From an uncultured Ignavibacteria bacterium (lineage in GTDB: Bacteria; Zixibacteria; MSB-5A5; CAIYYT01), in the NCBI GenBank assembly GCA_964617645.1, contig CAZTYE010000005.1, forward strand, positions 73,350-137,349: a DNA stretch of 64,000 bases, in the 5' to 3' direction. Below the pieces are notes generated by a model that saw only the letters and a program-made list of their open reading frames with translations, was not told the origin of the DNA and made no database searches. Position numbers and translations under genes: made by a program. Of the stretch, positions 14,364-22,748 are shown one piece after another (position 1 is the stretch's first letter; the number at the start of each line of letters is the position of its first letter).

Positions 14364-14394
14364 GGATTTGTAGCTCAGTTGGTTAGAGCTCGCG
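14364..14394 (+). other. Inverted partial copy of the tRNA-Ile 5' half (acceptor + D-arm), not a complete tRNA
   Basis: GGATTTGTAGCTCAGTTGGTTAGAGCTCGCG on the + strand, against GGGCTCGTAGCTCAGTTGGTTAGAGCGCGCG in the minus-strand tRNA-Ile. The following 11-bp-stem hairpin (14391..14417) is not an anticodon arm. Confidence 0.6.
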
Positions 14395-14554
14395 TCCCGA
14401 CCTTTGGTCGGGACGCGCGCAGCGTCATCAGACGGGGAATCTTCAAATGGGTTCGGGCAGAGTTGCGCTGCCGATCCCGACCTTTGGTCGGGATGCACAC
14501 AGCGTCATCAGGCCGGGAAATTTCAAATGGGCTCGGGCAGAGTTGAACTGCCGA
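14395..14554. repeat. Two tandem 80-bp units; each is a copy of the tRNA-Ile 3' end (T-arm + acceptor) plus ~53 nt of its 3' flank
   Basis: Units 14395..14474 and 14475..14554 align base for base: TCCCGACCTTTGGTCGGGA...CAAATGGG(T/C)TCGGGCAGAGTTG(CG/AA)CTGCCGA. The second unit supplies the real tRNA 3' end. Confidence 0.75.
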
Positions 14555-14601
14555 CCTCGCGCTTATCAGGCGCGCGCTCTAACCAACTGAGCTACGAGCC
14601 C
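14528..14601 (-). tRNA. tRNA-Ile (anticodon GAT)
   Basis: The reverse complement folds as a cloverleaf: acceptor GGGCTCG/CGAGCCC, D-arm GCTCAGTTGGTTAGAGC, anticodon stem CGCGC/GCGCG with loop CTGATAA, T-arm GGCAGTTCAACTCTGCC. Confidence 0.85.
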
Positions 14602-14893
14602 AGGAATAGGGAATGCCAAAGTACCAATCGACTTGAACTTGTCAATAAGATTTTCCTCGTTCCTGAAAGGCAAAGCCGGCGAATCTCATCGATCCACCGG
14701 CTTGTTGGGTGAGTGGAGGGATTATGACCAAACCCGCAATAGGGGGTAATCAGGGTAAAAGCTCTCGCGGCTAATCTGACTAATGGAGCAACTGAACTTG
14801 AGCCGCTTAGTCGCCTTTACACTGGGGAAGACGCACCGCCGGAAATGGTGTTTAATCCGTTCGCGAAAAATCTGGGTTTCGTATATTCGAGTC

Positions 14894-15733
14894 ATGCACA
14901 CCCGCGCTGCACAATTCGCCGGGAGCTTCTACACTAATAGCTCGTCGCGCCTCCGATCCGAGGTAGATTCGCTGCTCGCCGCGAATCCAGATGTCGGCAG
15001 CGAACGGCCTTACGGCATAATCGCACCCCATGCGGGTTACATGTACTCCGGCGCCTGTGCCGCCTTGGCCTATGCTCGATTGCGCCGGCACCGCGACAGC
15101 TACACTTCTGTTGTTGTGATTTCACCGTCGCACCGGGTTGGTTTCGATTTCGGATCGATATTCCACGGTGATGCCTACTCGACTCCGTTAGGCGCAATCG
15201 AAGTCGATACCGACCTGCGTACTAAGCTGGCTACCTATGACGGCTTGCGCGTCTCCGATTTGGGGCACTCCGAAGGTCGACTCGCCGAGCATTCTCTCGA
15301 AGTGCAATTGCCGTTTCTTCAGGTCGTCCTTGGAGACTTCAAGCTGATGCCAATCGTCATGGGCGAGCAGTCGCGGGATGCTGCAGCGGAGATTGCCGAA
15401 GCATTGTCGGGAGCTGTCGACATCACCTCGACGCTGCTCGTCGCCAGCTCCGACCTGTCCCACTTTCACTCGGCCGACCGCGCCGAGCGACTCGACCATC
15501 GAATCGTCGAAGCCATAAGTCGCTTTGACCCGCAATCGTTGCTCGACCTGATCGATTCCGGCCGTGCCGAAGCCTGCGGTTTTGGTCCAATGGCCGCCGT
15601 CTTGATAGCGTGTCAGCGACTCGGCGCAACCAAATGCGCGGTCGTCGATTACCGGCACTCTGGTCAGGTCACAGGCGACGCCGATGAAGTTGTCGGATAT
15701 CTTGCCGCTGTCATCACCGAGAATCGCAACTAA
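14894..15733 (+). CDS. MEMO1-family protein (AmmeMemoRadiSam system protein B homologue)
   Basis: The internal ATG at 14894 gives an N-terminus AAQFAGSFY. Conserved GIIAPHAGYMYSG and VVVISPSHR motifs. Confidence 0.8.
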   Translation: MHTRAAQFAGSFYTNSSSRLRSEVDSLLAANPDVGSERPYGIIAPHAGYMYSGACAALAYARLRRHRDSYTSVVVISPSHRVGFDFGSIFHGDAYSTPLGAIEVDTDLRTKLATYDGLRVSDLGHSEGRLAEHSLEVQLPFLQVVLGDFKLMPIVMGEQSRDAAAEIAEALSGAVDITSTLLVASSDLSHFHSADRAERLDHRIVEAISRFDPQSLLDLIDSGRAEACGFGPMAAVLIACQRLGATKCAVVDYRHSGQVTGDADEVVGYLAAVITENRN

Positions 15734-15863
15734 ATCGCCATTTTGGATACGCAACGCGACGCATTTGACATCGAGAATTGCCCGATCAAATACTTGACAA
15801 AACTACCCCAATACCGACATTGCGAGCAGTTTGACAATCAGGTTCTTCAGCAGGGAAGGTACT

Positions 15864-22349: not shown

Positions 22350-22461
22350 GTTCAAGGGACTACAGTGATCAATCGCAATCCAAAAAGCTTCTCTGATCGC
22401 GTTGCTTCGATCCACATCGGCTTCTGATATTTGGTGATAAATTTCGCCATCCTTTCCGACT

Positions 22462-22575
22462 TGTCATTCCGGCGAAAGCCGGAATCCAGGTTTCGCCCGT
22501 CATTCCCGCGCAGGTTGAGCGCGACGAAATCCCGCGCTTCAGCGGGACGGGAATCCAGCGGAGTCGGGAAGAGAA
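22462..22575. repeat. Composite RS3-like stem-loop repeat (family E variant) in the 23S–5S spacer
   Basis: GTCATTCCGGCGAAAGCCGGAATCC...CATTCCCGCGCAGG...CCCGCGCTTCAGCGGGACGGGAATCCAGCGG. Related to the units at 61.7 and 63.1 kb, with the first module inverted. Confidence 0.6.
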
Positions 22576-22591
22576 TAGGCAACCGAATTTT

Positions 22592-22707
22592 CCGGTGGCC
22601 ATAGCGTGAGGGTCACACCTGTTCCCATTCCGAACACAGAAGTTAAGCCTCACCGCGTCGATGGTACTGCTTGCGTAAGTGAGTGGGAGAGTAGATCGCT
22701 GCCGGGT
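22592..22707 (+). rRNA. rrf: 5S rRNA
   Basis: CCGGTGGCCATAGCGTGAGGGTCACACCTGTTCCCATTCCGAACACAGAAGTTAAGCC...GGGAGAGTAGATCGCTGCCGGG. Confidence 0.85.
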
Positions 22708-22716
22708 TAAATGACA

Positions 22717-22748
22717 AAACCCCTGCTTGGAAACGAGCCGGGGTTTTT
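22717..22748 (+). terminator. Intrinsic terminator of the rRNA unit
   Basis: AAAACCCCTGCTTGGAAACGAGCCGGGG hairpin followed by TTTTT. Confidence 0.6.

Follow-up and report, generated by a model that had tools for sequence, protein, structure and literature searches.

The 64,000-nucleotide (nt) stretch of DNA analysed here, referred to as the window, comes from an uncultured bacterium (assembly GCA_964617645.1, contig CAZTYE010000005.1, positions 73,350–137,349) and carries a ribosomal RNA (rRNA) locus in which the genes for transfer RNA-Ala (tRNA-Ala), 23S and 5S follow one another without a 16S gene. This locus is very probably a stand-alone tRNA-Ala–23S–5S operon in a genome whose 16S lies elsewhere, and its unlinked state an old trait of an uncultured lineage. 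The 23S gene is itself interrupted by an insert with the features of a group I intron.

A 23S–5S unit apart from 16S

The whole window was scanned with Rfam at gathering thresholds, and tRNA identities were taken from ARAGORN. The scan returns five RNA features, namely a large-subunit (LSU) rRNA, a 5S rRNA, two tRNAs and a group I intron, with no match to small-subunit (SSU) rRNA anywhere in 1–64000; a more permissive Rfam scan of 14000–23500 adds no 16S fragment and nothing else of relevance. The nearest 16S must therefore lie at least 18.7 kb upstream or at least 41 kb downstream, and the distance between 16S and 23S exceeds the 1500 bp above which Brewer et al. (bioRxiv 10.1101/705046) call rRNA genes unlinked. 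The locus departs from the canonical order 16S–tRNA-Ile–tRNA-Ala–23S–5S in that a promoter and two protein genes lie upstream of tRNA-Ala, and tRNA-Ile and tRNA-Ala are about 4 kb apart, on opposite strands and with protein genes between them. The features of the locus are:

14528–14601, reverse strand: tRNA-Ile(GAU) (Rfam 73.1 bits, ARAGORN)
14618–14645, reverse strand: tRNA-Ile promoter, TTGACA (14645–14640), 16 nt, TACTTT (14623–14618), conserved
18371–18398, forward strand: σ70-type promoter TTGACA-16-TATATT (11 of 12 matches, best site in the scan)
18399–18420, forward strand: leader start GCGCGTCGCTGTTTGAGGGCGT (22 nt; identical in four of five loci, one substitution in L206)
18424–18462, forward strand: leader hairpin followed by eight T, with the shape of an intrinsic terminator (scan match, fold)
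18539–18611, forward strand: tRNA-Ala(UGC) (Rfam 70.2 bits, ARAGORN)
18682–18694, forward strand: boxA-like GATCTTTGACAAC in the tRNA-Ala/23S spacer (conserved in L001 as GTTCTTTGACAAC)
18695–18758, forward strand: 5′ strand of the 23S processing stem (pairs with about 22370–22435)
18759–22240, forward strand: bacterial 23S (LSU_rRNA_bacteria; Rfam 2748 bits, model 1–2925, full length)
18759–20806, forward strand: 23S exon 1, ending at Escherichia coli U1923 (Rfam, junction set from L037)
20807–21264, forward strand: group I intron, 458 nt, without a homing endonuclease gene (RF00028, L037 comparison, covariation)
21265–22240, forward strand: 23S exon 2 (Rfam, L037 comparison)
22370–22435, forward strand: 3′ strand of the 23S processing stem, within the 23S–5S spacer (mini-construct fold)
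22591–22707, forward strand: 5S rRNA (Rfam 106.6 bits)
22716–22750, forward strand: intrinsic-terminator-like hairpin with a U tract, AAAACCCC...GGGGTTTTT (−21.8 kcal/mol, z = −3.6)

An earlier note on this DNA, made from the letters alone, had described a tRNA-Ala–23S–5S unit without 16S and a tRNA-Ile(GAT) at 14528..14601 on the other strand 4 kb away, and the Rfam and ARAGORN positions agree on both; a 16S gene directly upstream was looked for as well, with no SSU match in the 64 kb. The consensus-like promoter TTGACA-16-TATATT that it proposed is borne out by invariance in five loci (see below), and its terminator corresponds to the terminator-shaped hairpin after the 5S (z = −3.6). It had taken the 23S to be uninterrupted, overlooking the group I intron at 20807–21264.

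Promoter-like sites are overall no more numerous in the scan than in shuffled sequences, and the promoter at 18371–18398 owes its credibility to conservation and not to its scan score: five related loci, whose surroundings cannot be aligned, all keep the two hexamers and an upstream TTTCCGAAAA block unchanged. The leader start may be boxA-like, by its resemblance to other rrn leaders. The hairpin that follows is kept in all five loci (the window, L001 at about 10965–11003, L201, L205 and L206), with compensatory changes in its stem (CTTCGC/GCGAAG in the window versus CCCCGY/GCGGGG in the relatives). Its position is about 20–60 nt past the point where transcription of the rRNA operon is predicted to begin, and the five-locus alignment shows no further conserved promoter downstream of it. 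That the leader start, hairpin and T8 tract (18399–18462) together act as an attenuation or antitermination checkpoint, setting 23S–5S output relative to the separate 16S, is a doubtful proposal; if true, it would answer how organisms with unlinked rRNA genes balance their subunit rRNAs.

The tRNA-Ala sequence is 100% identical in the window and in L001, and it is followed in the spacer by GATCTTTGACAAC, a putative boxA-like element by its resemblance to those of rrn operons. Further downstream, the sequences on either side of the 23S are predicted to form a stem of about 60 bp with near-continuous pairing (−138.8 kcal/mol, z = −11.7, in a mini-construct without the 23S body). In this fold, the stem would be the expected ribonuclease III (RNase III) processing stem, and 23S maturation would not depend on 16S. 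No contig of the relatives extends to the hairpin after the 5S, a putative terminator. The 23S–5S spacer (22241–22590) is unusually long at 350 nt and contains several hairpins, two of them of the form CATTCC(C/G)G...GGAATCCAG at about 22465–22560. Leaving the intron aside, the 23S gene exceeds the Rfam model by about 100 nt through small expansions in helices of domains I and II, for example inserts of 18, 25 and 14 nt within the first 700 nt of the alignment.

A locus of this kind could be an extra or partial copy in a mixed genome, with a complete linked 16S–tRNA-Ile–tRNA-Ala–23S–5S operon elsewhere. The window covers 64 kb of a source contig of about 244 kb, and 0.62% of complete genomes combine linked with unlinked sets (Brewer et al., bioRxiv 10.1101/705046), but for each such mixed genome there are about six that are exclusively unlinked (bioRxiv 10.1101/705046). 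The 23S and 5S are full length and high scoring, with a conserved promoter and a processing stem, and do not resemble a decaying copy; moreover, tRNA-Ile(GAU) and tRNA-Ala(UGC) are each single and separately promoted, as expected where spacer copies are absent. A mixed genome is therefore unlikely, and a stand-alone operon with 16S elsewhere is the preferred reading.

The unlinked layout in a sister lineage

Sister loci were reached through the Memo protein, whose gene lies upstream of the tRNA-Ala–23S–5S unit. They comprise L001, L201 (GCA_964584025.1), L205 (GCA_964633215.1) and the Logan contigs L202–L204 and L206–L209. L001 is a metagenome-assembled genome (MAG) labelled ‘uncultured Ignavibacteria’, with a Memo 56% identical to that of the window (55–58% across the sister lineage). 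In the genome collection, the Memo scan found this one close relative and 79 distant loci, which are uninformative for synteny with the exception of L037 and L014.

The sister loci share the order tRNA-Ile(gat), a 434/443-residue protein, Memo, in some a TMEM260-like gene, the conserved leader, tRNA-Ala and 23S. Their tRNA-Ile is on the same strand as the 23S and about 3 kb upstream of it; it is inverted in the window genome only. In L001, the 11 kb upstream of the 23S hold M29 peptidase, Big_5 and MscS genes and no 16S. This layout was assembled independently at least four times within the sister lineage, in several NCBI MAGs and in two sets of Logan runs. The genes on both sides of Memo differ between the window and the sister loci, and the right flank is not conserved: a block from DapF to LptD is kept in L210 and L211, with no rRNA upstream of it.

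The 23S genes of the window and the sister lineage are 85.6% identical over the first 1.8 kb and 90% over the first 700 nt. Since the layout is common to both lineages and their 23S are only 86–90% identical, the unlinking and the separation of tRNA-Ile from tRNA-Ala predate the split between them. This uncultured lineage has thus long had its rRNA genes unlinked, and it is the inversion of tRNA-Ile alone that is particular to the present genome. To arrive at the layout, 16S had to part from tRNA-Ile and tRNA-Ile from tRNA-Ala, which makes two separations the minimum. The Ile–Ala pair would be the remnant of an ancestral 16S–23S spacer, opened by the insertion of protein genes.

An alternative along the lines of the earlier note, which saw a past rearrangement at the Ile/Ala spacer, is a recent, genome-specific event that split a canonical operon there. 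Protein genes between the two tRNAs are indeed as expected of a spacer broken open, and the inversion of tRNA-Ile in the window genome only, the half-copies of itself that flank it and the gene between Memo and leader, which differs from that of the relatives, would all suit a recent event. A single event, however, does not account for two separations shared with the sister lineage. The unlinked layout recurs there, with tRNA-Ile on the strand of the 23S, as do the separation of tRNA-Ile and tRNA-Ala by Memo and another gene and the lack of an upstream 16S; the divergence of the sister 23S makes the layout old, and the tRNA-Ile and the 23S unit each have their own conserved promoter. A recent split is accordingly quite improbable, and an ancient separation is favoured.

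In the window and in L001, ATTGACA and TACTTTGGCA are conserved upstream of tRNA-Ile, which is a separate gene with its own conserved, predicted promoter, 3–4 kb upstream in all relatives. Partial duplicates around this gene had been reported in the earlier note and are found here as both tandem and inverted repeats:

14395–14554, reverse strand: two 80-nt tandem units, 14395–14474 and 14475–14554 (direct repeat, 88% identity, spacing 80)
14358–14394, forward strand: inverted, diverged copy of the tRNA-Ile 5′ part, acceptor and D arm (37 nt, 84% complementary to 14571–14607)

Each 80-nt unit consists of the tRNA-Ile T arm and 3′ acceptor strand, a 53-nt trailer and a hairpin TCCCGACC-AAAG-GGTCGGGA, and the right-hand unit overlaps the real tRNA-Ile. 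L001 and L201 have a different partial copy downstream of the gene, running from the anticodon loop to the 3′ end and interrupted by a hairpin, and L206 has no partial copy at tRNA-Ile. These differences between loci indicate that the tRNA-Ile gene has repeatedly been hit by local duplication. When the half-copies were considered as att-type sites, the copies of the 3′ part proved to be only 80–130 nt apart, and there is no integrase among the neighbouring genes. An origin of the half-copies as integration scars or through inversion is plausible, and they may also be scars of duplication.

Other loci show related arrangements. In the Calditrichia-type L037 (1–5000) and L014 (1–4675), 23S–5S lies about 3 kb upstream of Memo, whereas Memo is upstream of tRNA-Ala–23S in the window and the sister lineage; the Memo/rRNA neighbourhood thus recurs in a different order. 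L187 (1–2150) is a metagenomic 23S with a position-1923 intron that is preceded by tRNA-Ile, tRNA-Ala and two weaker tRNA-like matches, with no 16S in the 190 nt upstream of tRNA-Ile, and may represent a second unlinked arrangement in an unrelated lineage. L139 was considered as an intermediate with promoter, tRNA-Ile, tRNA-Ala and 23S but no 16S; this was rejected, as the locus starts with the 3′ end of a 16S and is a normal linked operon.

The group I intron at position 1923

With its 3482 nt, the 23S gene is longer than the model of 2925 positions, and RF00028 matches at 20831–21164 (59.7 bits versus a threshold of 50, E = 1.3e-12). The intron-less, Caldithrix-type 23S of L037 aligns to positions 1932–2048 and 2507–3482 of the 23S gene and to nothing between, which fixes the insert at 20807–21264, between ...TAACGGT and CCTAAGGTAGCGAAA. 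The insertion falls directly after E. coli U1923, a numbering that we take from the pseudouridines known at 1911, 1915 and 1917 in GCCGΨAACΨAΨAACGGUCC, and is consistent with the introns found 8 nt further on, at position 1931, in other loci. The intron fold is strongly favoured over shuffled sequences (z = −8.0) and contains the following elements, together with two inserted repeats:

20800–20806 and 20881–20887, forward strand: P1, exon UAACGGU paired with guide GCCGUUA, U·G at the splice site
20893–20898 and 21075–21080, forward strand: P3
20903–20908 and 20971–20976, forward strand: P4
21068–21073 and 21136–21141, forward strand: P7
21147–21153 and 21158–21164, forward strand: P9
21264, forward strand: terminal G (omega G), directly before exon CCTAAGG
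21000–21038, forward strand: long hairpin repeat, 39 nt, in a peripheral loop (second copy at 23370–23408, intergenic)
21096–21115, forward strand: short hairpin repeat CCCACAG-CTTG-CTGTGGG in the P8 loop

Covariation was assessed in an alignment of 16 metagenomic position-1923 introns, which contains P1, P3, P4, P5, P5a/b, P8, P9 and two P9 extensions. Compensatory changes occur in 37 of the 64 consensus pairs, and the U·G of P1 is present in all 16 introns. P7 (ACUGUA/UACAGU) covaries to ACUAUA/UAUAGU and GCCAUA/UAUGGU, and the terminal G is kept in 15 of 15 introns aligned to the 3′ end (L195, cut short in the alignment, was left out). By its sequence, the insert is a group I intron with every core helix and both splice-site signals, and it would be expected to splice. 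It contains no homing endonuclease gene or remnant of one: the single long open reading frame (ORF; 20861–21274, 137 residues) overlaps the ribozyme core and has no Pfam match, and a search for further candidate ORFs gave none.

In a scan of metagenomes for the 5′ exon followed by a base other than C, 120 loci (L081–L200) were recovered, of which 64 are interrupted precisely at position 1923 by 200 nt or more. Most of these inserts share the intron core with the window, and the loci that were checked proved to be bacterial 23S genes in which Rfam reports group I matches. The insert sizes are bimodal, 254–447 nt and 660–817 nt, the first class without an ORF and the second probably with a homing endonuclease gene. 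In L087, L095 and L199, the intron lies 8 nt further on instead, at position 1931. The P1 loop is about 70 nt larger in the window than in short-form introns, an enlargement common to the window, L171 and L139; the 23S of L139 is only 77% identical to that of the window in its variable part, which indicates that related introns sit in distant hosts. L205, the sole relative to reach deep into the 23S, ends at its position 5365, equivalent to window 20716 and about 90 nt short of position 1923; the contig may simply have broken there in assembly, the stretch being universally conserved, or its end may reflect variation in the presence of the intron.

Two of the peripheral loops of the intron are filled by dispersed hairpin repeats. 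The short form, GGTGCCCCACAG-CTTG-CTGTGGG, has further copies at 22320–22339, in the 23S–5S spacer, and at 58771–58790, just past the PEPCK stop codon, giving three exact 18-mers in the window against 0.04 expected. A variant of the repeat interrupts the tRNA-Ile half-copy in L001 (about 8047–8075). Copies within the intron, the 23S–5S spacer and unique flanking DNA (23370 and 58771) tie both the rRNA locus and the intron to this genome. They point as well to long residence of the intron in it, and host-specific hairpin repeats may have colonised the peripheral loops of a catalytic intron. In the L139 intron, a different repeated CUUG hairpin is found at the same loops, and the L171 intron likewise has hairpins there that differ from those of the window.

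The insert could in principle be removed without splicing, as an intervening sequence excised by RNase III to leave a fragmented 23S, or could be a dead intron in a pseudogene. Intervening sequences removed by RNase III are frequent in bacterial 23S genes, and the insert has no homing endonuclease gene and carries repeats in its peripheral loops; however, it sits in the universally conserved strand of helices 69–71 (H69–H71) and not at a helix tip as is typical of intervening sequences, it passes the Rfam group I threshold, and it keeps the P1 U·G, the terminal G and P3–P9 including P7, with covariation across homologues. The inserted repeats are confined to loops that tolerate insertion, and the remaining 23S is intact (2748 bits). 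A non-splicing insert is thus very unlikely in comparison with a self-splicing group I intron.

Expression, setting and known counterparts

In the proposed course of expression, transcription would start near 18405 and read through the leader hairpin and T8 tract, probably aided by antitermination of the boxA type. RNase III would cleave the long stem to release pre-23S. The intron would splice itself out by attack of guanosine triphosphate (GTP) at U20806/U20807, with the exons ligated after G21264, and this would restore the H69–H71 region that the ribosome needs; 16S would be made from a separate promoter.

Several points weigh against a stand-alone operon that was unlinked long ago. The 16S gene was not located, and with a window of only 64 kb a second, linked operon may lie elsewhere. 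The start site, read-through of T8, cleavage by RNase III and splicing are all deduced from the DNA, and a hairpin shaped like a strong terminator between promoter and genes is hard to square with high expression of the operon. Only a few species of a single genus may make up the sister lineage (the 23S of L001 and L205 are 99% identical), so that conservation is shown between two lineages and not many, and the contigs of the relatives all end within the 23S.

These contig ends, and the fact that rRNA genes are classic points of breakage and mis-joining in metagenome assemblies, would also suit an assembly artefact, in which a 23S–5S fragment, possibly foreign, was wrongly joined to unrelated coding DNA and the absence of 16S is only apparent, but this concern, raised in the earlier note, is answered by a junction of Memo, leader, tRNA-Ala and 23S that recurs in at least four independent sister assemblies, by a leader that is conserved while its flanks diverge, by genome-specific hairpin repeats in the intron, the 23S–5S spacer and the unique flanks on the other side, and by an MNT-type gene after the 5S in both the window and L171, which together make an artefact extremely improbable.

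The protein genes between tRNA-Ile and tRNA-Ala are:

14783–15733, forward strand: Memo / AmmeMemoRadiSam system protein B gene (PF01875, E = 5e-61)
15831–18197, forward strand: 788-residue protein with an IPT/TIG domain (Pfam: TIG only)

The first had been named as Memo-like before, in agreement with the PF01875 match; its start is probably the 14897 of the gene caller, which gives 279 residues, and the database copy P0001 is 100% identical and also 279 residues long. The second had been called a peptidase lipoprotein, for which there is no support, since Pfam detects IPT/TIG alone and matches in the PDB are confined to the Ig-like domain of cyclodextrin glucanotransferases (CGTases). This protein is not present at the equivalent position in the relatives; the idea that it is the counterpart of their 434/443-residue protein was rejected, as it is unrelated to the 443-residue protein of L001.

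Directly after the 5S, at 22786–23085, lies an MNT-type nucleotidyltransferase gene (PF01909), with no recognisable HepT partner (23082–23348 has no Pfam match). Homologues occur in L171 (2087–2434; 50% identity), in the same place after the 5S, and in L139 (6618–6920; 66% identity), 1.8 kb after it. The remaining genes of the window include DapF, ArgRS, LptD, FtsK, a MiaB-like protein, PolA and PEPCK, and the rest of the window is the ordinary chromosome of a free-living Gram-negative bacterium. Homologues of PolA form a clade at 64–76% identity and then fall to about 55% (Zixibacteria and others), a drop that places the host in a deep uncultured lineage; among named organisms, Zixibacteria and one MAG labelled Ignavibacteria come closest to it.

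In Borrelia burgdorferi, 16S and tRNA-Ala are followed by a spacer of several kb with an opposite-strand tRNA-Ile, and then by 23S–5S. The window resembles this arrangement in that the Ile and Ala tRNAs are kilobases apart and tRNA-Ile is opposite in strand to the rRNA genes. In Borrelia, however, 16S is a few kb away and tRNA-Ala stays with it, whereas here tRNA-Ala accompanies the 23S, from which 16S is separated by 18.7 kb or more, and the window shows neither genome reduction nor a tandem 23S–5S duplication.

Unlinked rRNA genes are widespread and phylogenetically conserved, occurring in 37 of 71 phyla surveyed (bioRxiv 10.1101/705046). The earlier note had set the locus against the canonical operon; the order does depart from it, but in view of that survey is less unusual than was implied. 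Examples given by Brewer et al. (bioRxiv 10.1101/705046) include Thermus/Deinococcus, Planctomycetes, Dehalococcoidia and others; Ignavibacteria, Calditrichia and Bacteroidetes go unmentioned in the main text, where Zixibacteria was not searched for. The window is like those genomes in having 16S more than 1.5 kb from 23S, 23S–5S as its own transcription unit and conservation within the lineage, and in its context of an ordinary free-living Gram-negative bacterium. It differs from them in its host, a deep uncultured lineage near Zixibacteria, and in that tRNA-Ala stays with the 23S and tRNA-Ile is separate, a few kb off.

The LSU-1923 intron of the Chlamydomonas eugametos chloroplast encodes I-CeuI. 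In archaea, LSU/1923 is a recognised site of group I introns of subgroup IB4 (Nawrocki et al. 2018, PMC6125680), and since the archaeal LSU/1923 introns are IB4, the shared site suggests by analogy that the window intron may be IB4 as well. It has the same insertion point as the archaeal and Chlamydomonas introns (...UAACGGU/CCUAAGG...), together with the group I core, the U·G and the terminal G. Unlike these, it resides in a bacterial 23S outside the candidate phyla radiation (CPR) and has no homing endonuclease gene, its P1 loop is about 70 nt larger, and two of its peripheral loops are filled by hairpin repeats of the host.

Group I introns in bacterial 23S are known from Thermotoga and Simkania (both at 1931), Coxiella (1917, 1951), cyanobacteria and many CPR (PMC11270868). 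As with these, the introns described here fall within the cluster in domain IV between 1917 and 1951, with ORF-containing and ORF-less forms at one site, and the size distribution of the position-1923 inserts is likewise bimodal. The LAGLIDADG-rich 23S positions in the text of the CPR survey are 1917, 1931, 1952, 2593, 2604 and 2657 (PMC11270868); 1923 is not among them, and the two ‘1923’ strings in that text belong to the page range of a reference and to a DOI.

Both unlinked rRNA genes and position-1923 introns are therefore already documented, and current understanding is not overturned. Beyond organelles, archaea and CPR, group I introns at position 1923 occur commonly in bacterial 23S from the environment. 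For annotation, it matters that the 23S gene would exceed its mature RNA by 458 nt, and tools blind to the intron mis-size or split the gene. Unlinked rRNA genes defeat typing by long amplicons that span 16S, the internal transcribed spacer (ITS) and 23S, and they raise the question of how 16S and 23S are balanced without co-transcription. The locus is a clean example of this in a poorly known free-living lineage, with its promoter, leader, stem and terminator sharply defined.

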